64,000 nucleotides of DNA from Narcine bancroftii (Eukaryota). The translations under genes were made by a program, and so were the position numbers. The first letter of the stretch is position 1, and each line of letters begins with the position of its first letter. The notes beneath the pieces are model-generated. The model was not told the DNA's origin, ran no database searches, and worked only from the letters and a program-made list of their open reading frames with translations. Positions 4,114 to 34,145 of this stretch are shown piece after piece. The stretch covers positions 83,390,001 to 83,454,000 of the forward strand of contig NC_091481.1 of NCBI RefSeq assembly GCF_036971445.1, in the 5' to 3' direction.

Positions 4114-4152
4114 TGATTTGCATGTTGCAAGCTGTTCTATTTTTAAATAAAG
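4114..4152 (+). promoter_or_regulatory. Octamer/decamer TGATTTGCAT plus TATA-like TTTAAATAAA upstream of GPCR copy 1
   Basis: ATTTGCAT at 4116-4123 with an AT-rich box ~20 nt downstream; the same arrangement precedes copies 2 and 3. Confidence 0.55.
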
Positions 4153-4295
4153 ATAACTATTTGGAAAGTGTTGCAACCTCAAGAGGTCCCCAGAGAATCG
4201 CAGCGAATAAATGAAATGTTCGGGGTCGGCATCAGCTCAGAGCTCAATTCAGAGAGATTGGCTTCAGCACGAAGATACGTCTTCTCACGAAGAAC

Positions 4296-4362
4296 ATGCA
4301 TCGCCCAGTTCAAGTTGCCGCGAAGATATGGTACACCATCATTGCCATTATTGGTGTTCCTG
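4296..4362 (+). CDS. GPR139/142-like class A GPCR copy 1, coding exon 1 (MHRPVQVAAKIWYTIIAIIGVP)
   Basis: ATG at 4296, 67 nt, phase-1 donor G|GTAAGT; joins exon 2 in frame to give the TM1 GVPVN motif. Confidence 0.85.
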
Positions 4363-4991
4363 GTAAGTACCTTTCGCCTTACTTCTCACTGAGTCTATGA
4401 GGGAGAGTCCAACGGCTTCACCTCCGCTCTGTCTGTCCTCAGGAATACGTCTTACACTCCAGCCCCTCTGAACTATGTCCACCTCCTTCTGGCCCTTCCT
4501 TCGCCTGCCACCCTTCACGCTGGTCAATAAAATCAGACCTGCATAATTATGAAGCAAAATGAGCACATGCTGAGGGCACCAAGTGAAGGGGCAACGCAAA
4601 GTTTTTTCCAGTGCCAGATTTACCAGGCTGTAGCTGAATGAGGGCTCCAGCAAAACCCCAATACCCCACAATAAATGAAAAAATACATACACAAGTCAAG
4701 GTTATGTGATGATCTGTGTCGTGATACAGCTATTGAGGTTATATTTAATATCGTTGTGGGGTCTGACCTCGAAGAAAACTGAATTTCTTTAATCTATTAT
4801 TTCACATTCAGCGCTTATTGAGTCTTAACATCTTTCCAGTCAAAGGAAGGGTCGAGGAGGAACGACTGTTGGGCTGTGTTTAGGCCTCAATCAGGCCCTG
4901 TATAAATCTCTTCCCTGCATCTCCTCCATTACCCCACTTCTGCTCCCACCCAATCTCTCCTTCAGATGCAACAGGGATAGGGGGGTCTTCT

Positions 4992-6885
4992 TTACTTTAA
5001 CTTTATTTATTCATTCAAAAAACAAATAATATGTCATATACAGCAATTAAACATGAACATGAACATTTTTTTATATATATAAAAAAAAAGAAAGGAAAAA
5101 AAAGAAAAGATTTCTCCCCCCCCCTTCAGCCAACTCTCCCAAGGAGAGCCATAAGAAAAAAGAAAGAATATTAAAAAAGTTAAATATACATATTTAAATC
5201 AAATCAATATAAATTGAAATGTAATTATTCTGAGTATAACAGCCACTTATTAATTAAAAAATTATAATGATCATGCGAAACATATGTAATTTTTTCCATT
5301 ATTAAACAATATTTCATCTCATTATGCCATCTATTAATATCGATCATATTTGTATCTTTCCACGTACCAGCAATACATTTTTCCACTACGGATAAAGCTA
5401 AATATACAAATGCAAGCTGGAACTTATCTAATCCCAAACCTTTCAGAGGTGGCAAACTACCCAATAAAAATACTGTCGGATCTTAAACCATTTTAATCTT
5501 CTACAGATATTCTAAAAACGATTGAATTTTCTTCCAAAAAGATTGTATATGTCTACATGACCAAACAGCATGAAAAAAAAGTTCCAACCGTATCACCACA
5601 TCTAAAACACAAATCTGATTCATTAAAACCATATTTTTTTAATTTTTCAGGTGTCAAATATAATTGATGTGAAAATTGTAATTAATCATTGCATAACAAG
5701 GATTTATCAATCTCGTTACACTATCGTAACAGATATCTAACCAATCCTCTTCAGAAAAAGTAAAACCAATATCCGCTTCCTATTTAATTTTAGATCTATC
5801 CCAACCCCTTTTATCCAGACCATCCTGTAATATTTGATACATAAATGAAATATAACCCTTCTCTGGTACCTTCATAAGTCTCAAATTTAGTCATTTCAGG
5901 TAAAATCATCTCTCTACCAAAAATACATTTACCAAAGATCGAATTTGATAATAAAGAATTCTTATCAATACCAAAATCTTCCCTCATCTGATTAAAAGAT
6001 AAAAACTTACCCTCTTTAAAACAATCTTCCAAATTTTTCACACCTTTAAATCTCCAATACAATAAACTTCGATTATATATTGAAAAAGAAATGTTGATTA
6101 TTATACAACGGAGTCAAAGCCAATAATTTACCCCTAGAACCCATCATTTTATTTTTATTTATCCATAACTTCATTAAATGTTTTAGTATAGGCACATTAT
6201 ATTGTTGTAACAAATTCATATTCCACCTAAACAAAAATAGATGTATTTCAAATTCAGAAATACTTGCCATCTCAATTTTAGCCCAACTAGGAGGCTGTAC
6301 CAAATCCATCAATGAGCTAATAAATTTAAGTTGGGCTGCCTCATAATAATTTTGAAAATGTGGTAAACGTAATCCCCCTAACTCATATTTCCAAGTTAAT
6401 TTATTAAAAGCTACTCTCGAAAATTTACCCCTCCATAAAAACTCCCTAACCATTTTATTTAAATCACAAAAAAAAATATTATCAAGTAAATACAGAATAG
6501 ATTGAAACAAATATTGTATACGTGGAAAGATATTCATCTTAATTGTATTTATCCTTCCCATTAAATTACTAGGTAAATCTTTCCATTTAATCAAATCAGT
6601 TTTAATATTTTTCGTTAACGGGGCATAATTTAATTTATATAAAGGTTGATAATTAACATTCAAAATTATACCCAGATATTTTATTCGATCAGTCCACTTC
6701 AAATTAATAATATTCTTATAAACTGAATAATCTCCTTCACTTACCAGTAATATTCCATTTTTTTTCCTAATTAACTTTATATCCAGAAAGACATCCATAT
6801 TGAATTAAACATTCCTTCAAATGCAAAAGTGACTGAGCTGGGTTTGTTAAACACACCATCATTATATTATTATGCAAAACATATA
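4992..6885 (-). mobile_element. 5'-truncated L1-clade LINE, antisense in the intron of GPCR copy 1
   Basis: ORFs 6073-6798, 5811-6062 and 5225-5464 resemble the L1 ORF2 C-terminal half (IKYLGI, GRINTIKMNIFPR, GGLRLPHF); absent from the paralogous intron at ~19340; no clear TSD. Confidence 0.85.
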
Positions 6886-7590
6886 AGAGAGATCTCGCCG
6901 TTAAGTGGCCAAGGTGATAGATAGGCGTTGAAGAAGGCCTCCATGTGTGGCTTCGTTAACCATGGGATGGAACACAAGAGAAGGAGGATCATTGTTCCAG
7001 CGATTGAAGATGTTTATGGGGCCTCACCTGGAGTATCGTGTATAGTACGTTTGCCACACTGCAGAACAGGATGGGGTTGGTGCGGAGAGGGTGCAGAGGA
7101 GATTCACCAGGATGATACTTACACACAGGGGAGAGAAGACATTGGATACTGGAGCAAATATAAACAACTGGATGGTGGAAGTTGGTGGGTCGACAGTGGA
7201 AGGAAAACAATTGTCGACATTTCTGGTCAGATCCCTTCATCCAGTCTTGATGAAGTGACAGTGAATATCAGTTCAATTTCAGGTTCCCACCCAAATTATT
7301 AACTATTCTATTTTTCCAACTGATGCCCCTCGACCTGCTGAGCTCCTCCAGTAGAATTTGTTGTTGCTTTTTTTTTAAACATGAGGACATTGTTGCCTAT
7401 ATTGGATCAGTTTAGTTTTAAGGACAGATTACATGGGCTGGGTTTGAATCCAATAAACAATCGAGCAAAAGTTTGTAAGCTGGTTGGAGCTTTAGGCAAG
7501 ATTTTATCTTGTGTAACAAAATTTGGTTCCTTGCTGACGCAGGATGACCTGTACATTCTGACCCATTTTACCTTCTCTCTTGCTTTGCAG

Positions 7591-8492
7591 TGAATTTCGT
7601 GGCGATTGTGATCCTGTCCCGGGGTAAGTGCGGGCTCTCCCCTTGCACCACCCTGTACCTGGTGGCCATGGCGGTAGCGGACCTCTTGACCATCGTCACC
7701 CAGGTCATACTACGGCGCATCAATATTTATTATTTCCCCTGGAACTTCCTGCGCATCACGCCCGTCTGCAGTGTGCTGTTTGTCCTCAGGCATGCGGCCA
7801 GGGGCTGTTCTGTCTGGTTCACTGTTACTTTCACCTTTGATCGATACGTAGCCATTTGCTGCCAGAAGTTAAAAAATAAATACTGCACCAGAAAAACCGC
7901 GGTGGTGGTTCTGACGATAACTGGCACTCTGGTCTGTTTAAAAAATATTCCCAAGTACTTCACACAGGAACCTTGGGTGATCATCGACGGTATTCCTTGG
8001 CTGTGTATATTTAAGGCAGAATATTACTCTAAGCCGGAGTGGGTGGGATTTGACTGGTTCGACGCTGTATCAACCCCATTGCTGCCTTTCGGATTAATCT
8101 TGTTGTTTAATGTTCTGACGGTCAAACACATTCTGGTTGCCAGTCGGGTACGCAAGGGGCTAAGAGGTCAAAGCAAGGGAGAGAAGGCCAGTGACCCCGA
8201 GATGGAGAACCGCAGGAAGTCTATCATTTTACTCTTCACGCTATCGGGCAGCTTCGTCCTCCTGTGGCTGTCGTACATTATAGATTCCTTCTTTTATTCC
8301 ATCACTGGCACCACCGTCAGTGACTACAACAGTTCTCAATACAACTTTCGTTATGTTGGAGCCATGCTTCTACATTTAAGTTGCTGCACTAACACATTTA
8401 TCTATGCTGTGACTCAGTCCAAGTTCAGGGAACAGCTCAAGAACTTGGCTAAGTGTCCCGTACCTTCAATTATCCAAAAAATGTATCAATAA
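7591..8492 (+). CDS. GPR139/142-like class A GPCR copy 1, coding exon 2 (322 aa spliced protein)
   Basis: Acceptor ttgcag at 7590; 7TM pattern with YLVAMAVADL (TM2), TM3 Cys, FTFDRYVAIC, ECL2 Cys, TM5 PLLPF, TM7 NTFIY; open frame. Confidence 0.9.
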
Positions 8493-9677
8493 AACTGAAC
8501 TCAACAATTGATGTGCACAGATGTACTGGGTCAGAACAAATATTGGACTCATTGGGAGGGTTTGCAAAGCCGATCTGAGGTTTACGAGTCTACCTGTATC
8601 TTGACAATTTCCCTGTGAGTGCTGGATTCAATTCAATCAGATTTTAATGTTGTAAACACAGCAGCCCAGATTAGGTGATAGAGATTGAAGCTGAGGCAGT
8701 AGAATTCTGCCTGCAGGATGTGGGAAATCTGGGACAGCATGAAAGTCCATGGTGACTCCACCTGCATCCAGCTGTAGGTCCTTACAGACCGTGTTGGGGG
8801 ACTGGAGCTAGATGAACACTGGATCATCCAGGAGGCAGAGGGAAGTGATAAACAAAAGCTATAAGGAGACAGTCACACCAAAGGGGTAAGAGAAAGGTCA
8901 TTGGTTGACTGTTCGGAAATGGAAAGGCAGTCAGTGTGGAATACCCCTGTGACCATTCCCCTCAGCAACAAGTATACGCCCTTCGATACTGCTGGGGTTG
9001 AATGACTTGTCTGTGCAAGGCAATGGCCGGTCAATAGCACCGTGGTCAGATCTAAGCCCCAGTGGGGAAGGGTGGAGAGTGATAATCGGTGTCATGTTTG
9101 TTAGAGGAACGGATAGGAGATTTAGCAGCCACAAAATAGACTCCAGGATATAACCTGGGTGCTCAGGTTCAGGATGTGTCTGGGTAGTTGCAGAATATTC
9201 TTAATGGACAAAGTCTCACCAATGCCTCATAAAGCCTCAATTTAAGGAGTCACGTGATGGAGTAGTGGCCGGTCAGGGAATTCCAGCCCTCTCCAGAAAA
9301 GTTTAAAAAAAAACACAAAGCACAAAGGTACAAGATTAAAATTTATAATAAAGTAAAAATAAAGGTGAGAAGAAAATGGCAGCAAAGAGAGAAAAGTCGA
9401 AAACAACGGGAAGAAAAGAGGAAGAAAGAATGTCGGAAGAAGAAGGTGAAGGCCTTACCTGTCCGAAGAGGCCCGCCGCGGAGAGAGAAGCCCGCTCCCT
9501 CAGGTCAGTGGAAGTCTCAGGCTCAGGACTACAAAAATGGCTCGCGGAGCCGAGTAAAAGTGCGCAACCGCGCATGCGCGAGGAGTCGCGCATGAAAAAA
9601 AACACACTGACGGGAGGGGGGAACAGCTGCGGAGTCGATCTCCACAGCTGAGAGAGACACCTCCAGCACAGCAGCAG

Positions 9678-10610
9678 GTGCAGAACACGGACAATAACGA
9701 CAACAAGAAAGAAGAGGGTAAAAAGAAAACAAGGAAACAACAGATGGTCAACCCAGAGGAAGAAGAAGAAGAAGAACATAGAGAAATGGAAGAAGAAGGG
9801 AAGGGCAAGACAATGGATGTATCTTTTTTTAAAGAATATATGGAATCAGTGAAAGAATGGCAATTACAAGAATTTGATGAGATAAAAAGAAGAATTAAGA
9901 ATGCAGAAGAAAGAATGAATAAAATGGAAGTGGCCATATCAGAATTGGCAAAAAGAGTGGAAAATATGGAAAAACGAGAAACATTTGTAGATATGGAAGT
10001 AAAAGACTTAAAAAAGAAATTAGAAGAATCTAATAAAATAGTTAAAGAGACACAAGAGCTGTTAGCTCAGAAGATAGATATAATAGAAAACTATAATAGA
10101 AGAAATAATATAAAGATAGTGGGCCTTAAGGAAGATGAAGAAGGCAAGAATATGAGAGAATTTATAAAAGATTGGATCCCCAGGGTCCTGGGAAGACCAG
10201 AATTACAGGAAGAAATGGAAATAGAGAGGGCACATAGAACATTAGCCCCGAAACCACAACCGCAGCAAAAACCAAGATCCATTTTAGTAAAATTCTTAAG
10301 ATATACAACAAGAGAAAATATATTGGAGAAAGCAATGAAGAAAGTAAGAGAAGACAAAAAGCCACTGGAATACAAAGGTCAAAAAATTTTTTTCTATCCA
10401 GACATAAGTTTTGAACTCCTGAAGAAGAGGAAGGAGTTCAATACAGCGAAAACGATCTTATGGAAAAAAGGATATAAATTTATGTTAAAGTACCCAGCGG
10501 TACTCAAAATAGTTATTCCAGGGCAACAAAACAGACTATTCTCGGATCCAGAGGAAGCAAGGAAATTTGCAGAACAACTACAAAACAAGCAGAGAAATGA
10601 AGACATGTAA
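9678..10610 (+). CDS. L1 ORF1p (coiled coil, RRM, CTD); true start uncertain
   Basis: ENYNRRNNIKIVGLKE, EIERAHR, PRSILVKF, IFFYPDIS and KYPA motifs typical of L1 ORF1p. Confidence 0.85.
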   Translation: MQNTDNNDNKKEEGKKKTRKQQMVNPEEEEEEEHREMEEEGKGKTMDVSFFKEYMESVKEWQLQEFDEIKRRIKNAEERMNKMEVAISELAKRVENMEKRETFVDMEVKDLKKKLEESNKIVKETQELLAQKIDIIENYNRRNNIKIVGLKEDEEGKNMREFIKDWIPRVLGRPELQEEMEIERAHRTLAPKPQPQQKPRSILVKFLRYTTRENILEKAMKKVREDKKPLEYKGQKIFFYPDISFELLKKRKEFNTAKTILWKKGYKFMLKYPAVLKIVIPGQQNRLFSDPEEARKFAEQLQNKQRNEDM

Positions 10611-10684
10611 TGAGAGTAAAAATGACCACGAACTATATGTATGTGTGTAAAGGGGTATATGTGTGTATATATATAGTGTGTATA

Positions 10685-11657
10685 TTCAGAGCCAGCTCTT
10701 CAGCGCTTGACGTCCTGCTTTGCGGAAACTGCCAAAATGTTTGGCCTGGAAGTCAGCCTGAAGAAAACTGAGGTCCTCCATCAGCCAGCTCCCCACCATG
10801 ACTACCAGCCCCCCCACATCTCCATCGGGCACACAAAACTCAAAACGGTCAACCAGTTTACCTATCTCGGCTGCACCATTTCATCAGATGCAAGGATCGA
10901 CAATGAGATAGACAACAGACTCGCCAAGGCAAATAGCGCCTTTGGAAGACTACACAAAAGAGTCTGGAAAAACAACCAACTGAAAAACCTCACAAAGATA
11001 AGCGTATACAGAGCCGTTGTCATACCCACACTCCTGTTCGGCTCCGAATCATGGGTCCTCTACCGGCACCACCTACGGCTCCTAGAACGCTTCCACCAGC
11101 GCTGTCTCCGCTCCATCCTCAACATCCATTGGAGCGCTCACACCCCTAACGTCGAGGTACTCGAGATGGCAGAGGTCGACAGCATCGAGTCCACGCTGCT
11201 GAAGATCCAGCTGCGCTGGATGGGTCACGTCTCCAGAATGGAGGACCATCGCCTTCCCAAGATCGTATTATATGGCGAGCTCTCCACTGGCCACCGTGAC
11301 AGAGGTGCACCAAAGAAAAGGTACAAGGACTGCCTAAAGAAATCTCTTGGTGCCTGCCACATTGACCACCGCCAGTGGGCTGATAACGCCTCAAACCGTG
11401 CATCTTGGCACCTCACAGTTTGGCGGGCAGCAGCCTCCTTTGAAGAAGACCGCAGAGCCCACCTCACTGACAAAAGGCAAAGGAGGAAAAACCCAACACC
11501 CAACCCCAACCAACCAATTTTCCCTTGCAACCGCTGCAATCGTGTCTGCCTGTCCCGCATCGGACTGGTCAGCCACAAACGAGCCTGCAGCTGACGTGGA
11601 CTTTTTTACCCCCTCCATAAATCTTCGTCCGCGAAGCCAAGCCAAAGAAAAAAAAAA
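10685..11657 (+). mobile_element. 5'-truncated RTE-clade LINE inserted in the L1 inter-ORF spacer
   Basis: Uninterrupted ORF 10707-11594 (FTYLG, QLRWMGHVSRM, C-terminal CxxC...H...C finger); GCCAAGCCAAAGAAA tail; lands in a TA/TG-rich tract. Confidence 0.9.
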
Positions 11658-12088
11658 TACATGAATGTATCTGTATTTAGAGGAAAATATATAGAATATA
11701 GACAAGAATTAATAAGGGAGGGAAAGGGAATAGAGGGATTAAGGAGGGAATTAAAAGAGTGACCTTTGTTACATATGAAAATTGAAATCTTTTCTGGGAG
11801 GGGCTGGGAGGGGAGGAGTTACGGTCACTACAAAATCAGTTGACGTTTGTGAGTGAATTCGCAAATCCAAATGGAGAGGGGAGATATGGTTGTCCAACAA
11901 GGGATAAAGGACAACTCAGGAGGGGGAGGGGAGAATGGGGTTAAAGAAGTTTTAAATAGGAGAATAAGGAAAATGTTTGATGTTTTAGAAATGTTGTCTT
12001 ATAAAGTGTTCAAAACAAGAAAACAGAAATGGATAAGAAGGAAAGGTGATGATGGAGAAACGGAAAGGGAAGATAAACAAAGTATGAA

Positions 12089-15000
12089 ATGGCTACGCTG
12101 AACTATATGACTTTAAATATTAACGGAATACATAACCAAATTAAAAGGAAGAAACTGCTAAATTTACTGAAAAAAGAAAAAATTGATATAGCATTTGTGC
12201 AAGAAACACATTTAACTGAATTGGAGCACAAGAAATTAAAGAGAGATTGGGTAGGACACATAACAGCAGCGTCGTATAATTCAAAAGCAAGAGGAGTAGC
12301 TATATTAGTTAGTAAAAATGTGCCAATTAAAATAGAAGAGGAAATAATAGATCCAGCAGGGAGATATGTAATGATAAAATGTCAGATATATTCGGAGTTT
12401 TGGAATCTACTCAATGTATATTCACCTAATGAAGAAGATCAAAAGTTTATGCAAGATATTTTTTTGAAGATAGCAGATACGCAAGGGAACATATTAATAG
12501 GAGGGGATTTCAACCTGAATTTGGATTCAAATATGGACAAAACTGGGAAAAAAATTAACAGAAAGAACAAAGTAACTAAATTTATAATTAAATCAACGGA
12601 AGAAATGCAACTTTTGGATATATGGAGGAAACAACACCCAAATGAAAAGGAATATTCATATTACTCGGCTAGACATAAAACATACTCAAGAATAGACCTA
12701 TTTTTGTTATCAGCTCATATGCAGGATAGAGTAAGAGAAACATAATATAAAGCTAGAATACTATCGGACCATTCACCCTTAATATTGACAGTAAAGTTAG
12801 AGGACATCCCTCCAAGAATGTATAGATGGAGATTAAACCCCATGCTACTTAAAAGGCAGGATTTTAGAGAATTTATTGAAAAACAATTAAAAATGTATTT
12901 TGAAGTAAATACGGAATCAGTGGAAGATAAGTTTATACTATGGGATGCAATGAAAGCGTTCATCAGAGGGCAAATAATAAGTTATGTAACCAAGATGAAG
13001 AAGGACTATAATCAGGAAACAGAGCAGTTGGAAAGGGAAATAGTAAATATAGAAAAAGAATTAGCAATGAAGGAAGATACAACTAAAAGAAGAGAATTGG
13101 CAGATAAAAAAATAAAATATGAAACATTACAAACATATAAGGTGGAGAAGAACATAATGAAGACAAAACAGAAATATTATGAATTAGGGGAAAAAACGCA
13201 CAAAATTCTAGCATGGCAGCTTAAGACAGAACAAGCTAAGAAAATGGTATTGGCATCAAGGAAAAAAGACAAACAAATTACATATAATCCAAAGGAGCTC
13301 AAGGAAAACTTTAGAGAATTCTATGAACAATTATACCAAACTGAAAACGAAGGGAAAGAAGGGAAAATAGATGAATTTCTAACTAAAATTGAACTACCAA
13401 AACCACAAATTGAGGAACAAAATAAATTAACAGAACCATTTGGAATAGTAGAAATACAAGAGATAATAAAAAAATTACCAAATAATAAAACACCAGGAGA
13501 GGATGGATTCCCAATAGAATTCTATAAAACATTTAAAGATTTATTAATTCCTCCCCTCCTGGAAGTAATCAACCAGATTGATAAAACACAAAGCTTACCA
13601 GATTCATGTAAAACAGCAATAATTACAGTAATACTAAAGCAAGGGAAAGATCCACTCACACCAGCGTCATATAGACCAATATCATTACTTAACACAGATT
13701 ATAAGATAATAGCTAAACTATTAGCAAACAGATTAGCAGAGTATGTACCGAAAATGGTAAATCTAGACCAAACTGGATTTATTAAAAAAAGACGCACAAC
13801 AGACAATATTTGTAAATTTATTAACTTAATTCATGCAGTAGAAGGGAGTAAAGCGCCAACAGTAGCAGTTGCTTTAGATGCAGAGAAGGCCTTTGACAGA
13901 GTAGAATGGAATTATTTATTCAAAGTATTGCAAAAATTCAGTTTACCAGAGAAATATATTAATTGGATTAAAGCATTATATAAGGGGCCATTGGTGAAAG
14001 TGACAGTAAATGGATATATAGCAAAGCAATTTAACTTAAGCAGTTCAACAAGGCAGGGATGCCCACTATCACCATTATTGTTCGCGTTAGCTATAGCACC
14101 ACTAGCAGAATTGATAAGAACAGTAAATAATATAAAAGGGATAAAAATAAAAGACAAGGAATATAAAATCAGTTTATTTGCAGATGACGTTATAGTATAC
14201 TTAACAGAACCAGAAATATCAATAAAAGAATTACATAAGAAATTGAAGGAATATGGAGAAATGTCGGGATACAAGATTAACGCAAATAAAAGTGAAGCAA
14301 TGCCAATGAATAATGCGGATTTCTCAAAATTTAAGAAGGATCACCATTCAGATGGCAAATGCAAGCAATAAGATACCTAGGTATACAAATAAATAAAAAT
14401 CTCGGCCATCTATATAAACTCAATTATTATCCACTAATGAAAAAATTACAGGACGATTTAGAGCATTGGAAAGATTTACCATTAACACTAATAGGAAGGA
14501 TAAACTGAATTAAAATGAACATTTTCCCAAGGATATTATACCTATTTCAGACATTGCCAATACACTTGACAGAGAAATTCTTCAAGGAGTTAAAGAAAAT
14601 AATAAGGAAATTTTTATGGAAAGGGGGGAAACCGAGGATAGCACTAGATAAATTAACAGAATGGTATAAACAAGGAGGCTTACAACTGCCAAACTTTAAA
14701 AATTATTATAGAGCCGCACAATTAAGATACCTATCAGATTTTTATCAAACAAGGGAAAAGCCAGATTGGACTAGATTAGAATTAGATAAAACAGGGGAAA
14801 AGATACCTGAACATATATTATATAAATGGGATGAAAAATTGGTACAACATAGAAGTTCTCCAGTATTACATCATCTACTCAATATTTGGAAAAAGATTCA
14901 TGCAGAAAGGAATAAAACAAATTATCAATTACCAAAACTAATATTGACGCAAAATAAGTTACCCCCTTTTACAATAGATAACCTTTCCTTTAGAGAATGG

Positions 15001-15885
15001 GAGAAAAAAGGGATCAAGAGAATAGAAAATTGTTTTTCAGGAAATAGATTATTATCCTTTGAACAAATGGAAGATAAATACAATATAACTCAAGATACAG
15101 TGCTGGCATATTACCAATTGAGATCCTACTTGAAGGACAAATTAGGAAGCAGTCTGAGGTTACCAGAGGGAAGTAACCTTGAATATGTGATTACAGAAAC
15201 AATGATAATCAAAAGATTTATAACAAATATGTATATTAAACTGCAAGAAAAGGAGAACGAGGAAACAAATGGTAAAACTAAACAAAAATGGGAACAAGAT
15301 TTAAATATAAAGATAAAAAAGGAAACATGGGAGAAGTTATGTTCTGGAACGATGAGAAATACAATAAATATGGGGTTACGTATGATACAATATAACTGGA
15401 TACACAGGCTATACATTACACCTCAAAAGTTAAATAAATGGGACCCAACAGTATCTGATAGATGTTTTCGATGTAAAAAATAAATGGGAACAACAATTCA
15501 TGCAATCTGGACATGTGAGAAAGTAGAAAAATTTTGGGAAGATCTAAACCAAATATTAAATAAAATTACAGAAAACAATATACCAAAAAACCCAGAGATC
15601 TTCCTCCTAAGTAACATAAAAAACAAAGAATTTGGAATTGATTTGGAGGATGCACAAAAAAGACTTGTTAAGATAGCTCTAGCCATAGCAAAAAAATGTA
15701 TTATGTCAACCTGGAAATTGGAAGATAATTTGAAAATACAACAATGGTATATAGAAATGAATAAATGTATTCCATTAGAAAAAATAACATATAGTTTAAG
15801 AAATAATATTGAAATATTTGAACAAATATGGGAGCCTTACATGAAACACAATAGAGAAAACCTACCGGGGACAATCACTACCTAA
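12089..15885 (+). pseudogene. L1 ORF2p (APE endonuclease, RT, Cys-rich domain) with 3 nonsense codons and 1 frameshift
   Basis: TLNINGI, VQETH, GGDFN, SDHSP, RQGCPLSP and FADD motifs; stops at 12743-12745, ~14506 and 15481-15483; 1-nt deletion at ~14340. Confidence 0.9.
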
Positions 15886-18488
15886 ATTAACGAAAGGAGA
15901 AGGAAATGAAAAGAATTGACTCAGTGGAATTTCTTGTTTATTTTTATTGAATGACAACATTGTTTGACTGGTTTAATGTATCCTAGATTTTGTACTTTAA
16001 ATGGACGGGGGGGGGAGGTAGGGAGGGTGTGATGGGAGGAGGGAGGGGGGGGAGAAAATGGCACTGTATATATTTGAAAAGGAAAAAGTATATATCATGG
16101 TCAATGTGGTTTATGGTGTGAAAAATAAAAAAATTTTAAAAATTAAAAAAAATAAAGCCTCAATTTCACATCCCTGCTCTTCCATCCGATTCCTCTAGAC
16201 ATGAACACCCACATTGCATTTGCCTTCTTGGCCACTGACTCAATCTGAAGGTTAGACTTTCGGGTATCCTGCATGAGGACTCCCAAATCTCTTTGCACCT
16301 CCAAACTTTGAATTGGTAGTACATACTGATACCATTGACATGAGTGGGGCCATGGACCTGCAAAGTCAGTTTAGGGAGTTAGGAAACCGTTTGAACAGCA
16401 GGACCTCCCGGTACCACGAGCAAGGGAGATAGCGCAGATTAATGATGGCTGATCAAATGGTGCACGGGGCAGCGTTTCAAGTTCTTGGGGCATTGGAGCA
16501 TTTCTCCGCGGAACAGGTGACGTATAAAAGTGGGATGGGTTATACATGAACTGGAGGGGAAATAATATCCTGGCAGGAAGGTTTGATAATTCTGTTGTCG
16601 GGGCATTACTGAACAAGCTGGATATACATCAGAATCTGTTTGTCCCATCAATGACTGGATCATCCGTTAACTGCACTGCAGGGAAAATTTACCCTCTCCA
16701 AGATTATTTCCTAATAACAATGTCCACTGGTAAATTGATCTGATCCCTGTTGTCACATGTCTATTAACTGGTTTTGATTTCAAGATTATCTTGTTCAGAG
16801 GTATCGACTCCAAATCACACACCCCTCCCCCAAAAAAAACCTTGAATGAAATTTATTTCACCCTTGGCATCTTATCACGAAACCATGAGTAACTGGGCAG
16901 CCCCATTATCGCAAAAGATTTTTACTGTCACCTATAGAGGCACTTCCTCTAGCCAGAGGGTCGAGGATCTGTGGAACTCACTGCCGCATACAGCAGTGGA
17001 AGCCAGATCACTAGGAGTATTTAAACAAGAAATAGACAAGTATCTCATTAGTGAGGGCATCAAGGGATATGGGGAAAAGGCCAGAAATTGGAACTAGTGT
17101 AGAGTTACAGAACAGACTCGGTGGGCCTAGTGGCCTGCTTCTGTCCCTTTGTCTTGTGATCTTGTGAAAGCCTTACCCTCTGACAAAATATTTCAATTCC
17201 TCCCTAATTTTACCAACAGGTCCAGAACCTTTCTTTTTTAAAATTTCTGTATTCCATCTCTTTGAATACAGGCTGCCTCATTTTCATTAGGGGTGAAGAT
17301 GGGGCAGAGGAAGGAGCACCAGTCAACAGGCAGGAGGCCAGAGTTGGTCATGGACAGGAGATCAAGAGAGAAAAGATGAGAATTGATCGGGAAAGGAATA
17401 CAGAGCAGGAGGAATGGTGACAGATCATCCTCCATGTATAGCGTAGAAGGTTGAGAGGGGATTTGATAGAGGTATTTAAAATTATCAAGGGAATAGATAG
17501 AGTAGATGTGAATAGGCCTTTCCCCTGAGGGTAGGGGAGATTGGGACAAAGGGCTCATAAGTTAAGGGATAGGGGCAAAACCTAAAAAGTGGATGCTTCT
17601 TCACTCAGAGAGTGGTGGCTGAGTGGAATGATCTACCGGAAGAGGTAGTTGCAGCAGGGTCAATTCTGTAATTTAAGAGGAGGTTGGATGAGTAGATGGA
17701 TGTGAGGGGGTTGGAGGGTTATGGGCAAGGGAGTGGGTAGGTGGAACTACTGGAGTTTCACGAAAATTGGTGCGGACTACAAGGGCCCATATGGCTGGTT
17801 TCCGTACTGTAATTGTTACATGGTTATAGGTTAAGGTGGGGAGTGTGTACAATATGCAGGCGGTCACCTGAATAAAAAGGCAGGAGTGTGAGGGAAGAAG
17901 GGGCAAGGGGAGGAGCACAGCCCAACAGCCAATGAGGCCATAGGTGGACATTGACAGGGAGCAGGAGAGAGATGCTGAGAATTTATTGGGACAGTGGTAG
18001 CTCTGTAAATGCAGAGCTGGAGTAAAGGAGACATAGGGATCTGGAAAGTGAGAGACAGACAGGCTCGTTCCATTTCACTATTCTCTAGCCATAGGTTAAG
18101 GTGAGCAGGCAGGAGGATTAGAGGGGACCTGAGTTAAATTGTTTTCACCCAGATGGGGGCTGCAGTCTGGAATCTACTGACTGAGGAGGAAACAAGTGTT
18201 CTCACAATGTTGACATAGTGTCCGGGCCACAGTTGGATTGCCACGGCATAGAGGGCTGTGGATGAAGTGCTGGGAAATGGGATGGGTATAGATGGGTACA
18301 TGATAGTCAACATGAATTCCATGGGTGGAAGGGCCTGTTTTTGTGCTGTACGATTCCTTGAGTCTAATGTTGAATTTGCCAAAACTAGAAGCAGATAATC
18401 TTATTCTCATATTCCAGCATTAACCGTTTCTGTTCTCCTCTGCCAGTTTAAATTTAATCGGCACTTTCTAATTTACACAAGAGGGAGA

Positions 18489-18527
18489 TGATTTGCATGT
18501 TGCAATCTGTTCTATTTTTAAATAAAG
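18489..18527 (+). promoter_or_regulatory. Octamer plus TATA-like element upstream of GPCR copy 2
   Basis: TGATTTGCAT at 18489-18498 followed by TTTTTAAATAAA. Confidence 0.55.
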
Positions 18528-18670
18528 ATAACTATTTGGAAGGTGTTGCAACCTCAAGAGGTCCCCAGAGAATCACAGCGAATAAATGAAATGTTCGGGG
18601 TCGGCATCAGCTCAGAGCTCCATTCAGAGAGATTGGCTGCAGCACGAAGATACCTCTTCTCACGAAGAAC

Positions 18671-18737
18671 ATGCATCGCCCAGTTCAAGTTGCCGCGAAG
18701 ATATGGTACACCATCATTGCCATTATTGGTGTTCCTG
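18671..18737 (+). CDS. GPR139/142-like GPCR copy 2, coding exon 1
   Basis: Same 67-nt exon as copy 1; GTAAGT donor. Confidence 0.85.
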
Positions 18738-20040
18738 GTAAGTGCCTTTCGCCTTTACATTTCACTGAGTCGGGCTTCACCTCCGCTCTGTCTGTCCTCA
18801 GGAATACGTCTTCCACTCCAGCCCCTCTGAACTATGTCCACCTCCTTCTGGCCCTCCCTTCGCCTCCCTCCCTTTTAAGCTGGTCAATAAAATCAGGCCT
18901 GCATTAATTATGAAGCAAAATGAGCACATGCTGAGGGCACCAAGTGAAGGGGTGTCGCAAATTTTTTTCCCGTGCCAGATTTACCAGGCTGTAGCTGAAT
19001 GAGGGCTCTACATAAAGTCCCCCACCACAATAAATGAAGTTATACATACACAAGTCAAGGTTATGTGATGGTCTGTGTCGTGATACAGCTATTGAGGTTA
19101 TATTTAATATCGTTGTGGGGTCTCACCTCGTAGAAAACTGAATTTTTTTAATCTATTATTTCACATTCAGCACTTAACATCTTGTCAGTAAAAGGAAGGG
19201 TGGAGGAGGAACGACTGTTGGGCTTTGTTTAGGCCTCAATCAGGCCCTGTGTAAATCTCTTACCCGCATCTCCTCCATTACCCCACTTCTGCTCCCACCC
19301 AATCTCACCTTCAGATGCAACAGGGATATGGGGTCTTTTTGAAAGAGATCTCGCCGTTAAGTGGCCAAGGTGATAGATAGGCATTGAAGAAGGCCTCCAT
19401 GTGTGGCTTCATAAACCGTGGGATGGAACACAAGAGGAGGAGGATGATTGTTCCAGCGATTGAAGATGTTTATGGGGCCTCACCTGGATTATCGTGTGTA
19501 GTACGCATTAAAACACTGCAGAGCAAGATGGGATTGGTGTGGAGAGGGTGCAGAGGAGATTCAGCAGGATGATACTGACACACAGTGGAGAGAAGATATT
19601 GGGGAAAATATAAACAACTGGATGGTGGAAGTTCGAGGGTCGACAGTGGAAGGAAAACAATTGTCGACATTTCTGGTCAGATCCCTTCATCCAGTCTTGA
19701 TGAAGTGACAGTGAATATCAGTTCGATTACAGGTTCTAACCCAAATCATAACCATTCTTTTTCTCCCACTGATGCCCCTTGACCTGCTGAGCTCCTCTAG
19801 TAGAATTTGTTCTTGCTTTTTTTTTTAAACACCAGGATATTGTTGCCTATATTTGATCAGTTTAATTTTAAGGACAGATTACATGGGCTGGGTTTGATCC
19901 AATAAACAATCGAGCATAAAGTTCGTAAGCATGTTGGGGTTTTAGGTAAGATTTTATCTTCTGTAACAAAATTTGGTTCCTTGCTGACGCAGGATGACCT
20001 ATACATTCTGACCCATTTTACCTTCTCTCTTGCTTTGCAG

Positions 20041-20942
20041 TGAATTTCGTGGCGATTGTGATCCTGTCCCGGGGCAAGTGTGGACTCTCCCCTTGCACCA
20101 CCCTGTACCTGGTAGCCATGGCGGTGGCGGACCTCTTGACCATTGTCAACCATGTCATACTATGGCGGGTCAATATTTATTATTTCCCCTGGAACTTCCT
20201 GCGCATCACGCCCGTCTGCAGTGTGCTGTTTGTCCTCATGAATGCGGCCAGGGGCTGTTCTGTCTGGTTCACTGTTACTTTCACCTTTGATCGATACGTG
20301 GCCATTTGCTGCCAGAAGTTAAAAAATAAATTCTGCACCAGGAAAACCGCGGTGGTGGTTCTGACGATAACTGGCACTCTGGTCTGTTTAAAAAATATTC
20401 CCAAGTACTTCACACAGGAACCTTGGGTGATCATCGACGGTATTCCTTGGCTGTGTATATTTAAGGCAGAATACTACTCTAAGCCGGAGTGGGTGGGATT
20501 TGACTGGTTCGACGCTGTTTCAACCCCATTGCTGCCTTTCGGTTTAATCTTGTTGTTTAATGTTCTGACAGTCAAACACATTCTGGTTGCCAGTCGGGTA
20601 CGCAAGGGGCTAAGAGGTCAAAGCAGGGGAGAGAAAGGCAGTGACCCCGAGATGGAGAACCGCAGGAAGTCTATCATTTTACTCTTCACGCTATCGGGCA
20701 GCTTCGTCCTCCTGTGGCTGTCGTACATTATAGATTCCTTCTTTTATTCCATCACTGGCACCACCGTCAGTGACTACAACAGTTCTCAATACAATTTTCG
20801 TTACGTGGGAGCCATGCTTCTACATTTAAGTTGCTGCACTAACACATTTATCTATGCTGTGACTCAGTCCAAGTTCAGGGAACAGCTCAAGAACTTGGCT
20901 AAGTGTCCCGTACCTTCAATTATCCAACAAATTTATCAATAA
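20041..20942 (+). CDS. GPR139/142-like GPCR copy 2, coding exon 2
   Basis: Acceptor ttgcag at 20040; intact 7TM frame with DRY motif. Confidence 0.9.
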
Positions 20943-23900
20943 AACTGAACTCAACAATTGATGTGCACAGATGTACTGGGTCAGAACAAATATTGGACTC
21001 ATTGGGAGGGTTTGCAAAGCCGATCTGAGGTTTACGAGTCTACCTGTATCTTGACAATTTCCCTGCGAGTGCTGGATTTAATTCAATCAGATTTTAATTT
21101 TGTAAACACAGCAGCCCAGATTAGGTGATAGAGATTGAAGCTGAGGCAGTGGAATTCTGCCTGCAGGATGTGGGAAATCTGGGACAGCATGAAAGTCTGT
21201 GGTGACTCCACCTGCATCCAGCTGTAGGTCCTTACAGACCGTGTTGGGGGACTGGAGCTAGATGAACACTGGATCATCCAGGAGGCAGAGGGAAGTGATA
21301 AACAAAAGCTATAAGGAGACAGTCACACCAAAGGGGTAAGAGAAAGGTAATTGGTTGACTGTTCGGAAATGGAAAGGCAGTCAGTGTGGAATACACCTGT
21401 GACCATTCCCCTCAGCAACAAGTATACGCCCTTCGATACTGCTGAGGTTGAATGACTTGTCTGTGCAAGGCAATGGCCGGTCAATAGCACCGTGGTCAGA
21501 TCTAAGCCCCAGTGGGGAAGGGTGGAGAGTGATAATCGGTGTCATGTTTGTTAGAGGAACGGATAGGAGATTTAGCAGCCACAAAATAGACTCCAGGATA
21601 TAACCTGGGTGCTCAGGTTCAGGATGTGTCTGGGTAGTTGCAGAATATTCTTAATGGACAGGGTGGGCAAACAGACAAAGTCTCACCAATGCCTCATAAA
21701 GCCTCAATTTCACATCCCTGCTCTTCCATCCGATTCCTCTAGACATGAACACCAACATTGCATTTGCCTTCTTGGCCACTGACTCAATCTGAAGGTTAAA
21801 CTTTCGGGTATCCTGCATGAGGACTCCCAAATCTCTTTGCACCTCCAAATTTTGAATTGGTACTACATACTGGTACCATTGACATGAGTGGGGCAGTGGG
21901 CCTGCAAAGTCAGTTTAGGGAGTTAGGAAACTGCTTGAACAGCAGGACCTCCCGGTACCACGAGCCAGGGAGATAGCGCAGATTAATGATGGCTGATCAA
22001 ATGGCGCACGGGGCAGTGTTTCAAGTTCTTGGGCCATTGGAGCATTTCTCTGCGGAACAGATGATGTCTAAAAGTGGGATGGGTTATACATGAACTGGAG
22101 GTGAAATAATATCCTGGCAGGAAGGTTTGATAATTCTGTTGTTGGGGCATTACTGAACAAGCTGGATATATATCAGAATCTGTTTGTCTCATCAATGACT
22201 GGATCATCCGTTAACTGCACTGCAGGGAAAATTTACCCTCTCCAAGATTATTTCCTAATAACAATGTCCACTGGTAAATTGATCTGATCCCTGTTGTCAC
22301 ATGTCTATTAACTGGTTTTGATTTCAAGATTATCTTGTTCAGAGGTATCGACTCCAAATCACACACCCCTCCCCCAAAAAAAACCTTGAATGAAATTTAT
22401 TTCACCCTTGGCATCTTATCACGAAACCACGAGTAACTGGGCAGCCCCATTATCGCAAAAGATTTTTACTGTCACCTATAGAGGCACTTCCTCTAGCCAG
22501 AGGGTCGAGGATCTGTGGAACTCACTGCCGCATACAGCAGTGGAAGCCAGATCACTAGGAGTATTTAAACAAGAAATAGACAAGTATCTCATTAGTGAGG
22601 GCATCAAGGGATATGGGGAAAAGGCCAGAAATTGGAACTAGTGTAGAGTTACAGAACAGACTCGGTGGGCCTAGTGGCCTGCTTCTGTCCCTTTGTCTTG
22701 TGATCTTGTGAAAGCCTTTCCCTCTGACAAAATATTTCAATTCCTCCCTAATTTTACCAACAGGTCCAGAACCTTTCTTTTTTAAAATTTCTGTGTTCCA
22801 TCTCTTTGAATACAGGCTGCCTCATTTTCATTAGGGGTGAAGAGGGGGCAGAGGAAGGAGCACCAGTCAACAGGCAGGAGGCCAGAGTTGGTCATGGACA
22901 GGAGATCAAGAGAGAAAAGATGAGAATTGATCGGGAAAGGAATACAGAGCAGGAGGAATGGTGACAGATCATCCTCCATGTATAGCGTAGAAGGTTGAGA
23001 GGGGATTTGATAGAGGTATTTAAAATTATCAAGGGAATAGATAGAGTAGATGTGAATAGGCCTTTCCCCTGAGGGTAGGGGAGATTGGGACAAAGGGCTC
23101 ATAAGTTAAGGGATAGGGGAAAAACCTAAAAAGTGGATGCTTCTTCACTCAGAGAGTGGTGGCTGAGTGGAATGATCTACCGGAAGAGGTAGTTGCAGCA
23201 GGGTCAATTCTGTAATTTAAGAGGAGGTTGGATGAGTAGATGGATATGAGGGGGTTGGAGGGTTATGGGCAAGGGAGTGGGTAGGTGGAACTACTGGAGT
23301 TTCACGAAAATTGGTGCGGACTACAAGGGCCCATATGGCTGGTTTCCGTACTGTAATTGTTACATGGTTATAGGTTAAGGTGGGGAGTGTGTACAATATG
23401 CAGGCGGTCACCTGAATAAAAAGGCAGGAGTGTGAGGGAAGAAGGGGCAAGGGAAGGAGCACAGCCCAACAGCCAATGAGGCCATAGGTGGACATTGACA
23501 GGGAGCAGGAGAGAGATGCTGAGAATTTATTGGGACAGTGGTAGCTCTGTAAATGCAGAGCTGGAGTAAAGGAGACATAGGGATCTGGAAAGTGAGAGAC
23601 AGACAGGCTCGTTCCATTTCACTATTCTCTAGCCATAGGTTAAGGTGAGCAGGCAGGAGGATTAGAGGGGACCTGAGTTAAATTGTTTTCACCCAGATGG
23701 GGGCTGCAGTCTGGAATCTACTGACTGAGGAGGAAACAAGTGTTCTCACAATGTTGACATAGTGTCCGGGCCACAGTTGGATTGCCACGGCATAGAGGGC
23801 TGTGGATGAAGTGCTGGGAAATGGGATGGGTATAGATGGGTACATGATAGTCAACATGAATTCCCTGGGTGGAAGGGCCTGTTTTTGTGCTGTACGACCC

Positions 23901-24032
23901 CGTGAGTCTAATATTGAATTTGCCAAAACTAGAAACAGATAATCTTATTCTCATATTCCAGCATTAACCGTTTCTGATCTCCTCTGCCAGTTTACATTTA
24001 ATTGGCACTTTCTAATTTACACAAGAGGGAGA

Positions 24033-24071
24033 TGATTTGCATGTTGCAATCTGTTCTATTTTTAAATAAAG
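24033..24071 (+). promoter_or_regulatory. Octamer plus TATA-like element upstream of GPCR copy 3
   Basis: TGATTTGCAT at 24033-24042 followed by TTTTTAAATAAA. Confidence 0.55.
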
Positions 24072-24214
24072 ATAACTATTTGGAAGGTGTTGCAACCTCA
24101 AGAGGTCCCCAGAGAATCATAACGAATAAATGAAATGTTCGGGGTCTGCAACAGCTCAGAGCTCCATTCAGAGAGATTGGCTGCAGCACGAAGATACGTC
24201 TTCACACAAAGAAC

Positions 24215-24281
24215 ATGCATCGCCCAGTTCAAGTTGCCGCGAAGATATGGTACACCATCATTGCCATTATTGGTGTTCCTG
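24215..24281 (+). CDS. GPR139/142-like GPCR copy 3, coding exon 1
   Basis: Same 67-nt exon; GTAAGT donor. Confidence 0.85.
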
Positions 24282-25028
24282 GTAAGTGCCTTTACATTTC
24301 ACTGAGTCTGCGTGGTTGAGTCCGATGGCCAGCTCTCTTCCAGTTCATCCATTTCTGGTGCACTTCTCAGAAACAAGCTTTCCACTCCAGCACATTTGAA
24401 ATATGTTCTCCTCTCACTGAAATGCACCACCCCCCCCCCCCCACCCCCACAGCCCTCTTCCTCCTCTGTGGTCGATAAAGCCCTCACCCGCATCTTCTCC
24501 TGCTCTCAGTCCATCTCCCCCAATGCACCACAGGGATAGGGAGTGTTCATGAAAGTGGCCAGGCCAAAGAGATAGTGGGTGAAGAAGGCATATGCCGTGC
24601 TGGCTCTCATGAGCACAGGAACAGGAGGATCATTGTTCCAACTTCATAAGTCTTTAGCTAGGAGTATTATGGCCACACTGCAGACTAGGATGTGGTTGAT
24701 GTGGAGAGGATGCAGAGGAGATTCGCCAGGATGTTGCAGACGCTGTAACCTACTTCAAAAATAAACAATTGAATGGAAGAGTGCAGTAGTCGAGCAGCAA
24801 CAGTGGGAGAAAAACACGATTGCCAATACCTTTCGACCAGAATTGATGAAACCACTCTTCATGAAGTTCAGTTTGATGAAGGGTTCCAGGGCGAAACACT
24901 AACCTTGCTTTTGCTCCCACTAATGTTGCTTGACCTGCGAGCTCCTCCAGCAGAATTTTTAGTTGATTTTTTAAAAAAAACACATCAGGATGTTGTTGCC
25001 TGATTTGGAGGACTTCGGTTTTAAGGAT

Positions 25029-25350
25029 AGATCGAGAGGTGATCTCGTATCAGAGATCGAGAGGTGATCTCGTATCAGAGATCGAGAGGTGATCTCGTAT
25101 CAGAGATCGAGAGGTGATCTCGTATCAGAGATCGAGAGGTGATCTCGTATCAGAGATCGAGAGGTGATCTCGTATCAGAGATCGAGAGGTGATCTCGTAT
25201 CAGAGATCGAGAGGTGATCTCGTATCAGAGATCGAGAGGTGATCTCGTATCAGAGATCGAGAGGTGATCTCGTATCAGAGATCGAGAGGTGATCTCGTAT
25301 CAGATATCGAGAGGTGATCTCGTATCAGAGATTGAGAGGTGATCTCGTAT
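25029..25350. repeat. 25-bp minisatellite, ~13 copies (AGATCGAGAGGTGATCTCGTATCAG)
   Basis: Direct tandem repeat with no spacers, inside a CR1 fragment in the copy 3 intron. Confidence 0.95.
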
Positions 25351-26250
25351 GAGGAAGACATATAAAGGATAGGAAGAATCCTTTACCCCATGGTGGGGGT
25401 ATCTAAAACAAGAGGGCAGAGGTTAAGGTGAGGAAGAGAAGGTTTAGAGGGGATATTTTATAGGGGATGGTTAGTCCCTGGAGCACTCTGCCTGAGGCTG
25501 TGTTGAGGGCAGAGTCTCTCACAACAGTCAGGCAAATGTTGAAGTAGGTTGATTCCAGAGATGAGGTGGGGGGACAGGGCATTAACCTGTGAAGGGAGAT
25601 TGAGTCATCTGGGGCTGTACTCGCTGGTATTTAGAATTAGGGGGATTTTATAGAAATGTACACCTGTATGAAAGGCATAGATATAATGGAATCAGGCAAA
25701 TTGTTCCCATTGGCCATTGGTGGGGGAAGTCGAGAACTAGGGGACATAGCCTCAAGGTCCAGGGGAGTAGATTTAGGACGGAGATCAGGAGGAACTGTTT
25801 TACCCAAAGGGCAGTGAATCTGTGGAATTTTCCACCCTTTGAAGCAGTAGAGGCAGCCTCAGTGAATATATTTAAGACAAGGTTGGATAGATTTTTACAT
25901 ATTAGGGGAATTAAGGGAAATGGGGAAAAGGCAGGTCGGTGGAGATGAGCCGATCATCAGATCGGCCATGATCTCATTGAATGGTGGAACAGACTCAATG
26001 GGCCAGATGGCCAACACCTGCTCCTATTTCTTTGTTTCTTATGAATCATAAAGGCATAGAAGACTATGAGCAAAGGCAGAAAAGGGATGAGTGTGGATTC
26101 ATTCAATGGTTAGTATGGACACAGTGAACCAAAGGGTTTGTGTCACTGCTATGTGACCCCCAACACCAAGTGGTCCCCAATAGATTTATTGAGCAGATTC
26201 ATGGTGTCAGGATGAATCTGACCCATTTTACACTCTCTCTTGCTTTGCAG

Positions 26251-27146
26251 TGAATTTCGTGGCGATTGTGATCCTGTCCCGGGGTAAGTGTGGGCTCTCC
26301 CCTTGCACCAGCCTGTACCTGGTGGCCATGGCCGTGGCGGACCTCTTGACCATCGTCACCCAGGTCATACTAAGGCAGATCAATACTTATTATTTCCCCT
26401 GGAATTTCCTGCGCATCACGCCCGTCTGCAGTGTGCTCTTTGTCCTCAGGCATGCGGCCAGAGGCTGTTCTGTCTGGTTCACTGTTACTTTCACCTTTGA
26501 TCGATACGTGGCCATTTGTTGCCAGAATTTAAAAAATAAATACTGCACCAGGAAAACTGCAGTGGTGGTTCTGACGATAACTGGCACTCTGGTCTGTTTA
26601 AAAAATATTCCCAAGTATTTTACACAGGAACCTTGGGCAATCGTCGACAGTATTCCTTGGCTGTGCTTTTATAAGCCGGAATATTTCTCTCAGCCGGAAT
26701 GGGTGGGATTTGACTGGTTCGACGCTGTTTCAACCCCATTGCTGCCTTTCGGATTAATCTTGTTGTTTAATGTTCTGACGGTCAAACACATTCTGGTTGC
26801 CAGTCGGGTACGCAAGGGGCTAAGAGGTCAAAGCAATGGAGAGAAAGGCAGTGACCCCGAGATGGAGAACCGCAGGAAGTCTATTATTTTACTCTTCACG
26901 CTATCGGGCAGCTTCATCTTCTTGTGGCTGTCGTACATTATAGATTCCTTCTTTTATTCCATCGCTGGCATCGCTGTCAGTGAGTACAACAGTTCTCAAT
27001 ACAACTTTCGTTATGTGGGAGCCATGCTGGTGTCTTTAAGCTGCTGCACTAACACATTTATCTATGCTGTGACTCAGTCCAAGTTCAGGGAACAGCTCAA
27101 GAACTTGGCAAAGTGTCCCGTACCTTCAATTATCCAGAGTTTATAA
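26251..27146 (+). CDS. GPR139/142-like GPCR copy 3, coding exon 2 (320 aa spliced protein)
   Basis: Acceptor ttgcag at 26250; intact 7TM frame with a divergent ECL2, ECL3 and TM7. Confidence 0.9.

Positions 27147-33908: not shown

Positions 33909-34145
<237 letters not shown>

Follow-up and report, generated by a model that had tools for sequence, protein, structure and literature searches.

Which kind of receptor system is represented by a tandem array of intact G protein-coupled receptor (GPCR) genes that carry automatic GPR139 names in the genome of the ray Narcine bancroftii? The array lies in a stretch of 64,000 nucleotides (NCBI RefSeq assembly GCF_036971445.1, contig NC_091481.1, positions 83,390,001 to 83,454,000, forward strand), hereafter called the window, to whose first letter all coordinates refer. 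A preliminary description made from the letters alone had proposed that the array belongs to a locally multiplying, diversifying family of sensory or immune character. Here, we examined gene structure, family breadth, phylogenetic position, pocket variability, and recombination history of the three genes. They are best read as intact young members of a very large chondrichthyan family that likely serves as a sensor repertoire for diverse water-soluble ligands, with an own pocket in each copy and one shared G-protein pathway.

Three intact receptor genes in tandem

The window contains three complete class A GPCR genes in tandem on the plus strand, as read from splice sites and open frames, and all three copies are intact. 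Each has a coding exon 1 of 67 nt, a GT-AG phase-1 intron that falls inside transmembrane helix 1 (TM1), and an uninterrupted exon 2 (ECL, extracellular loop):

4296–4362, plus strand: copy 1 exon 1, with ATG and GT donor, encoding the N-terminus and the first half of TM1
7591–8492, plus strand: copy 1 exon 2, with AG acceptor and open frame from the remainder of TM1 to the stop (7tm_1, E 1.5e-20)
18671–18737, plus strand: copy 2 exon 1; the spliced product reads as protein P0122
20041–20942, plus strand: copy 2 exon 2, with pocket positions 60, 89, and 90 changed relative to copy 1
24215–24281, plus strand: copy 3 exon 1; the spliced product reads as protein P0126
26251–27146, plus strand: copy 3 exon 2, differing chiefly in ECL2, ECL3, and TM7

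The products measure 322, 322, and 320 amino acids for copies 1, 2, and 3, and that of copy 1 is identical to the N. bancroftii RefSeq protein XP_069764698.1 (P0001). All three match Pfam 7tm_1 (E about 1e-20, 74–75 bits against a cut-off of 30.5), which is their sole Pfam match, and share an N-terminus of about 8–10 residues, DRY at 106–108, and NTFIY at 290–294. Other class A landmarks are likewise present, namely D53 (D2x50), the pair C82/C161 (C3x25 and ECL2), P188 (P5x50), and W248 (W6x48). The canonical prolines of CWxP and NPxxY are absent throughout the family, the window copies having LWLS and NTFIY in their place. By sequence, all three belong to class A, within the GPR139/142 branch.

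The splice sites and the Pfam matches bear out the earlier account of three complete two-exon genes with a DRY motif and an N-terminus of about 10 residues. That account had singled out NTFIY as non-canonical; the motif is indeed in all three copies, but it is the norm of the family (72 of 111 non-redundant members) rather than a peculiarity, and human GPR139, with NFFLY, also lacks the TM7 proline. The end of the array had been placed exactly, at 27146, whereas its supposed start at 4114 lies one base off the ATG of a 33-codon upstream frame at 4113, and the receptor ATG is at 4296. No fourth copy was detected in the 64-kb window by tblastn with four family proteins as queries.

A small twig of a large chondrichthyan family

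A search with exon 2 reached 2436 of 3544 candidate clusters at E ≤ 1e-3. The taxonomic make-up is known for the best 120 of these matches, the other 2316 lying outside the count; 119 carried names and all 119 were sharks or rays, with 62 from the horn shark Heterodontus francisci and 19 from Pristiophorus japonicus by hand count. The horn shark thus has at least 62 family clusters among the matches listed, mutually less than 90% identical. A search without the word index gave 1427 representatives at E ≤ 1e-3, of which 118 passed 1e-30, with names looked up for 20 of the 150 representatives listed. One cluster at 90% identity consists of seven N. bancroftii proteins out of seven, all on one contig, which places four more close paralogues outside the window; further members from this species occur on other contigs (257.7 and 216.9 Mb), and a family member was found in the chimaera Callorhinchus. 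All copy numbers derive from annotated proteins and are lower bounds. Some annotated models (P0002, P0039, P0140, P0183, P0362) join a family receptor to a second partial receptor or to unrelated coding sequence, such as zinc fingers, and are probably mis-joined exons that result from the tiny first exon.

In the tree, 47 chondrichthyan rows form one clade (support 97/83, or 99/97 after dropping one long row), inside which Callorhinchus is nested (100/90). The Narcine rows are spread over three separate subfamilies, and the window genes group with Rhinoraja, Pristis, Mobula, and Hypanus in a branch confined to rays (100/100). The array is a small young twig of a far larger chondrichthyan family, which shows the organization of chemosensory repertoires, a large multi-copy family in tandem clusters. 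The label "lineage-specific" that had been given to it holds for cartilaginous fishes but not for N. bancroftii, as sharks, rays, and a chimaera share the family.

The sister group of the chondrichthyan clade (100/99) comprises eight amphibian, sturgeon, and bichir rows, and relatives from coelacanth, teleosts, lamprey, and amphioxus branch further out. Since the 20 amphibian clusters of this sister receptor have 20 different representative species (members of multi-member clusters being mostly uninspected), it is apparently single-copy. No amniote or teleost members of the sister group were found among the best 25 of 1675 candidates in one search or the best 95 of 8000 in another; both searches were word-limited, and loss is not implied. 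These conserved amphibian, sturgeon, and bichir proteins (P0239, P0287–P0306, P0326) are also automatically named GPR139 and score only 53 bits against the human receptor.

A hypervariable pocket above a constant cytoplasmic face

Thirteen transmembrane residues that contact the ligand, as given in the available portion of the GPR139 structure paper (PMC8807744), were mapped by alignment to GPR139; the list includes E108, F109, H187, W241, R244, and N271, and excludes V263 and three ECL2 residues, where the alignment was gapped or loop-like. Copy 1 retains one of the 13, W6x48. Among 111 members less than 80% identical, drawn from 176 full-length sequences of 218, mean entropy is 2.44 bits at the pocket positions versus 1.26 bits at other transmembrane positions, and 1.98 bits in the outer half versus 1.01 bits in the inner half. 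Between 107 and 110 of the 111 members retain the ECL2 disulfide cysteines, D2x50, and W6x48. Several pocket positions are charged, with E or D at 2x57 (73/109), D at 5x43 (64/111), and R at 2x62 (64/110).

Because outer variability is common in GPCRs, a control set of 20 amphibian orthologues of the sister receptor (mean identity 0.81) was run. Their pocket entropy is 0.09 bits, with 11 of 13 positions invariant, and the pocket is GPR139-like (F3x33, N7x38, P6x50, and a basic residue, K, at 6x51). When family sets of 20 were matched for divergence, 39 of 96 overlapping sets lay at an identity of at least 0.80, with a pocket entropy of at least 0.99 bits. In the eight tightest of the family sets, the other transmembrane positions have 0.41–0.42 bits versus 0.43 bits in amphibians. 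The inner loops of the family are more conserved than those of the control (0.43 versus 0.77 bits) and its outer loops less so (1.13 versus 0.45 bits). The same contrast marks the youngest changes, both within the array, where the 11 residue differences between copies 1 and 2 fall on 3 of 13 pocket positions versus 8 of 309 elsewhere (P 0.007), and among seven Narcine paralogues, in which 6 of 13 pocket positions vary versus 43 of 309 elsewhere (P 0.007). As judged from these alignments, the pocket of the family is hypervariable at matched divergence and its cytoplasmic face is conserved.

What the array may sense

Family breadth and the variable pocket bear out the proposal of a multiplying, diversifying receptor family with the look of a sensory or immune repertoire. 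In our best reading, the family is a repertoire shaped by gene birth and death and directed at diverse soluble ligands. We would predict, as a best guess, small peptides or amino-acid derivatives that are polar and water-soluble, because several pocket positions are mostly charged and known ligands of the wider branch are aromatic amino acids and aromatic-amide peptides (PMC8557429). Many pockets on a constant cytoplasmic face would suit a repertoire that feeds one pathway; OR, TAAR, FPR, and MRGPR families combine a constant inner face with many pockets. As for where such receptors would be transcribed, we lean toward chemosensory rather than immune cells, a preference that falls short of an expectation. 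When three read runs guessed to be RNA were compared with copy 2, at least eight short contigs of run X1 (85–175 bases, depth 3.5–9.7) mapped to the leader and to both exons, and a single contig of run X2 mapped to exon 2; no exon-exon joint across the copy 2 intron was found in these runs, a result that neither shows nor excludes expression.

Several points weigh against a sensor repertoire. Family genes have two coding exons, whereas odorant receptors are single-exon. The tree rests on 66 hand-picked rows, among which true GPR139 and GPR142 are missing; the pocket was mapped through an alignment of 21% identity, in which TM2 may be off by one; and the entropy tests treat related sites and sequences as independent, with the horn shark over-represented. 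In three coding sequences, no dN/dS (ratio of nonsynonymous to synonymous divergence) exceeds 1, which leaves room for relaxed constraint, and the ratios of nonsynonymous to synonymous codons in the outer half (6:7, 16:11, and 22:12) are below the roughly 3:1 of neutrality, those of the inner half being 3:10, 6:11, and 6:11. Finally, the catshark nose is reported to be V2R-dominated, and the available passages of the two papers on it (PMC10116579, PMC11979771) make no mention of the GPR139-named family.

This last observation, made on catshark olfactory neurons (PMC10116579), would also fit an innate-immune or barrier-tissue repertoire, comparable to FPR or MRGPR, for microbial, parasite, or damage-derived peptides. 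Such a repertoire has the same diversified-pocket core as a chemosensory one and differs in tissue, so that the same evidence of pocket variability speaks for both. Block shuffling by conversion, moreover, is typical of host-pathogen receptors. On the other side, GPR139 itself is neuronal according to the available text of its structure paper (PMC8807744), and a supplement of 4,750 characters to one paper on the nurse shark spleen makes no mention of the family, which says little. We regard an immune or barrier role as unlikely but worth keeping in view.

Clearly less probable is redundant copy-number drift in a repeat-rich genome, in which the copies would all answer to a single endogenous ligand or to a handful of them, or signal without ligand, while the pocket relaxes. 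A dN/dS below 1 everywhere tested agrees with drift, and dense long interspersed nuclear elements (LINEs) would favor unequal crossover. However, variation is concentrated at the pocket and the outer loops, with the other transmembrane positions matching the single-copy control in conservation and the inner loops exceeding it; the retention of the disulfide cysteines, D2x50, and W6x48 and the intactness of all three window copies also argue against it. A sensor repertoire remains our preferred reading.

Very probably not orthologues of GPR139

The window genes appear not to be GPR139 orthologues despite their RefSeq names, because copy 1 scores only 38.9 bits against human GPR139 and keeps one of its 13 pocket residues; the earlier doubt that they might be 1:1 orthologues of a characterized receptor is thereby removed for GPR139. 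The same copy scores 144 bits against a salamander relative, 126 bits against coelacanth, and 82–89 bits against amphioxus proteins. Human GPR139, in turn, scores 53.2 bits with the salamander, 59.5 with the anchovy, 70.4 with the coelacanth, and 100.8 with the amphioxus relatives, all above its score with copy 1. The closest relative found outside cartilaginous fishes is the amphibian, sturgeon, and bichir receptor and not GPR139.

The predicted fold adds little to this question. The structure model has seven helices and an ECL2 hairpin, with a predicted local distance difference test (pLDDT) of 76 and a predicted template modeling score (pTM) of 0.74. In the VIA structural comparison, GPR139 (7vug) comes first (Z 28.2, root-mean-square deviation 3.0, 280 aligned residues, 21% identity), but further peptide receptors share that rank. 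As Foldseek ranks neurotensin and other peptide receptors first, with GPR139 not among its best 50 rows, and the first place of GPR139 in the other comparison is only a tie, the fold does not discriminate among receptor types. Matches in the ESM Atlas were only to clusters automatically named GPR139 or FMRFamide receptor-like. The notion that the array consists of duplicated GPR139 or GPR142 orthologues responding to L-Trp and L-Phe could draw on the RefSeq names and on human GPR139 as both the best sequence match among solved structures and a tied structural top row, but it is very improbable given the bit scores with human GPR139 and a pocket in which R6x51 is kept in 2 of 111, E3x32 in 0 of 110, and N7x38 in 3 of 110 members.

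Duplication, recombination, and the sequence between the genes

The blocks that precede, separate, and interrupt the genes are as follows:

3467–4295, plus strand: copy 1 upstream block, 91–92% identical to the upstream blocks of copies 2 and 3, containing the upstream ATG frame as well as an A/T run that is TATA-like; putative promoter
4113–4214, 18488–18589, and 24032–24133, plus strand: upstream frame of 33 codons that every copy retains; membership in the mRNA is putative
4993–6887, minus strand: LINE-type fragment of about 1.9 kb in the copy 1 intron, recognized by the gap between self-matches and by its junctions, absent from copy 2
9244–16151, plus strand: L1-type LINE of 6908 bp with an ORF1-like frame, endonuclease, reverse transcriptase (Pfam Exo_endo_phos and RVT_1), and an A-rich tail
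16152–18670, plus strand: copy 2 upstream spacer, 98% identical to the copy 3 upstream spacer (21696–24214)
25029–25350, no strand: 25-bp tandem array of 12.9 copies in the copy 3 intron

The copies are 96.6, 92.5, and 90.6% identical in amino acids. With a pairwise synonymous divergence (dS) of 0.076–0.148 and dN/dS of 0.20, 0.27, and 0.33, they are young copies under purifying selection. Without the 6908-bp insertion, copies 1 and 2 are separated by the same spacer sequence as copies 2 and 3, at 98–99% identity. The LINE is flanked by a 15-bp target-site duplication (9229–9243 and 16152–16166) and has no counterpart in the homologous spacer that separates copies 2 and 3; it inserted after the spacer duplication.

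Upstream of the genes, informative sites group copy 2 with copy 3 (copy 1 apart at 55 sites, copy 3 at 5, copy 2 at 1), whereas in exon 2 they group it with copy 1 (copy 3 apart at 70, copy 1 at 10, copy 2 at 17), a switch with P 2e-22. By this pattern, which is as expected from unequal crossover, copy 2 is identified as a recombinant. A single crossover would be insufficient, because the copy 2 intron is only 92–93% identical to that of copy 1 and copy 2 shares TM2/TM3 residues with P0123. Among six full-length Narcine paralogues, all four combinations of TM2/TM3 block and ECL3 block occur, which points to conversion or repeated crossover that reassorts pocket blocks among paralogues. A low-depth contig of run X1 at 20115–20288 joins the TM2 residues of copy 2 to copy 1 letters at codons 89 and 90; none of the seven annotated paralogues has this pairing, which may reflect another recombinant or a chimeric assembly.

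We find it barely credible that the array is an assembly artefact of uncollapsed haplotypes, for which only the near-identity of the spacer blocks speaks, since on the evidence of sequence the exons are 3–7.5% and the introns about 7% apart, copy-specific LINE insertions and a different copy 3 intron tell the copies apart, no N occurs within 1–49122, and a sister branch in Rhinoraja is also multi-copy, with four of five cluster members on one contig; the haplotype duplication that the preliminary description had named as a danger is accordingly improbable.

The history of the family could have begun with a single ancestral receptor whose pocket resembled that of GPR139. Amphibians, sturgeon, and bichir would still retain this receptor, which in the chondrichthyan line would have started to multiply before the split of chimaeras and elasmobranchs. 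P6x50 and the basic residue at 6x51 would have been lost in the chondrichthyan family. Unequal crossover would then supply new copies, and gene conversion that swaps TM2/TM3, ECL2, and ECL3 blocks may supply new specificities.

The upstream frame stops 81 bases short of the receptor ATG. The most homogeneous part of the array is the leader with this frame together with exon 1, which could be regulatory or simply young. That LINEs had landed in the intron and spacers of intact genes is confirmed, the 15-bp duplication marking a real insertion, but it does not make the array special, as LINE pieces also lie outside it. We presume the element at 4993–6887 to be a LINE from its frame at 6076–6804, and no Pfam match was found within it. 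Likewise, we take the element at 9244–16151 to be an L1, and the fragment nested in it (about 10677–11591) to be a second LINE; the L1-type element is young and near full-length with long open stretches, and the nested fragment sits between its two frames.

Downstream of the array, four minus-strand frames with Pfam E1_dh matches (32851–33324, 33909–34145, 35898–36335, and 37136–37435) span 32851–37435, one of which scores 129 bits against human branched-chain keto acid dehydrogenase alpha (BCKDHA). This BCKDHA-type gene stands tail to tail with the receptor array and offers a synteny anchor. GC-rich tandem arrays at 46018–48912 (16/49-bp, 33-bp x12, and 22-bp x65) lie just before the only gap of the window (200 N, 49123–49322).

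Significance and comparison with known receptor systems

The proteins of this family are already present in RefSeq under automatic GPR139 names. We found no description of the chondrichthyan family in the literature, as far as listings and the starts of abstracts go, most subscription papers, including the white shark and the 2018 shark genome papers, being outside this scope. The white shark genome paper may note many "probable GPR139" genes. In the available text of the zebra shark genome paper, GPCRs are not mentioned (PMC10620051), and in that of a survey of vertebrate GPCRs by Rinne et al., cartilaginous fish are absent, with no occurrence of "shark" or "cartilaginous" (PMC6504862). New here are the account of how the copies recombined, the apparently single-copy sister group beyond cartilaginous fishes, and a pocket control at matched divergence.

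The family has been hidden under a misleading name, with at least 62 clusters in the horn shark compared to about 30–35 V2Rs and almost no odorant receptors reported for sharks and rays. The available parts of the catshark papers list 32–34 V2R, 8 OR-type, 3 ORA, 3 TAAR, and 2 TARL genes, or 2–9 per non-V2R family (PMC11979771, PMC10116579). If its members are sensors, accounts of chemoreception, or of innate sensing, in cartilaginous fishes would leave out the largest component. A bolder version, which we put forward only tentatively, is that cartilaginous fishes have an independent fifth chemosensory receptor family that arose from the GPR139/Wamide-peptide receptor branch, is probably their largest GPCR family, and was diversified by swaps of pocket blocks between tandem copies, the single ancestral receptor surviving in amphibians, sturgeon, and bichir. 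Copies 1 and 2, with three of their 11 differences at the pocket, form a natural experiment, and the single-copy Xenopus relative with its GPR139-like pocket is a tractable entry to the ancestral ligand.

Human GPR139 (7vug), as described in the available portion of Zhou et al. (PMC8807744), resembles the window family in its class A fold, DRY, W6x48, and the absence of a TM7 proline, and signals mainly via Gq/11. The window family is 21% identical to it and differs in 12 of 13 replaced transmembrane pocket residues, the loss of P6x50, a longer intracellular loop 3 (ICL3) with a conserved DPEM motif, and tens of copies per species versus one. To the same orphan branch belong GPR210A/B, which together with a third GPR139/142-like subtype occur in fishes and coelacanth, have unknown ligands, and were not found in the mammals surveyed, according to the available text of Rinne et al. 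(PMC6504862). The coelacanth and teleost proteins in our tree stand outside the chondrichthyan clade, the Ensembl identifiers of that survey being unmatched to them. Nearest is the amphibian, sturgeon, and bichir receptor (e.g., XP_069092602.1, automatically named GPR139), which shares the ICL3 motif (DPEM/DPEV) with the window family and, with apparently one gene per species and a near-invariant pocket (F3x33, K6x51, N7x38, P6x50), stands closer to GPR139.

Tandem clusters, birth and death of genes, a short N-terminus, and a variable outer with a constant inner half characterize the OR, TAAR, V1R/ORA, V2R, and FPR/MRGPR repertoires. The window family matches them in these traits and differs in its two coding exons and its origin from the GPR139/Wamide-receptor branch. 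On the protostome side, the receptors for MIP, proctolin, FMRFamide, myosuppressin, and RGWamide are GPR139/142 relatives activated by aromatic-amide peptides and, as far as the available text of Thiel et al. (PMC8557429) goes, a sister expansion of the same ancestral receptor as the branch of the window family; they are few and conserved and serve endogenous neuropeptides, whereas the chondrichthyan genes have the appearance of a hypervariable repertoire.

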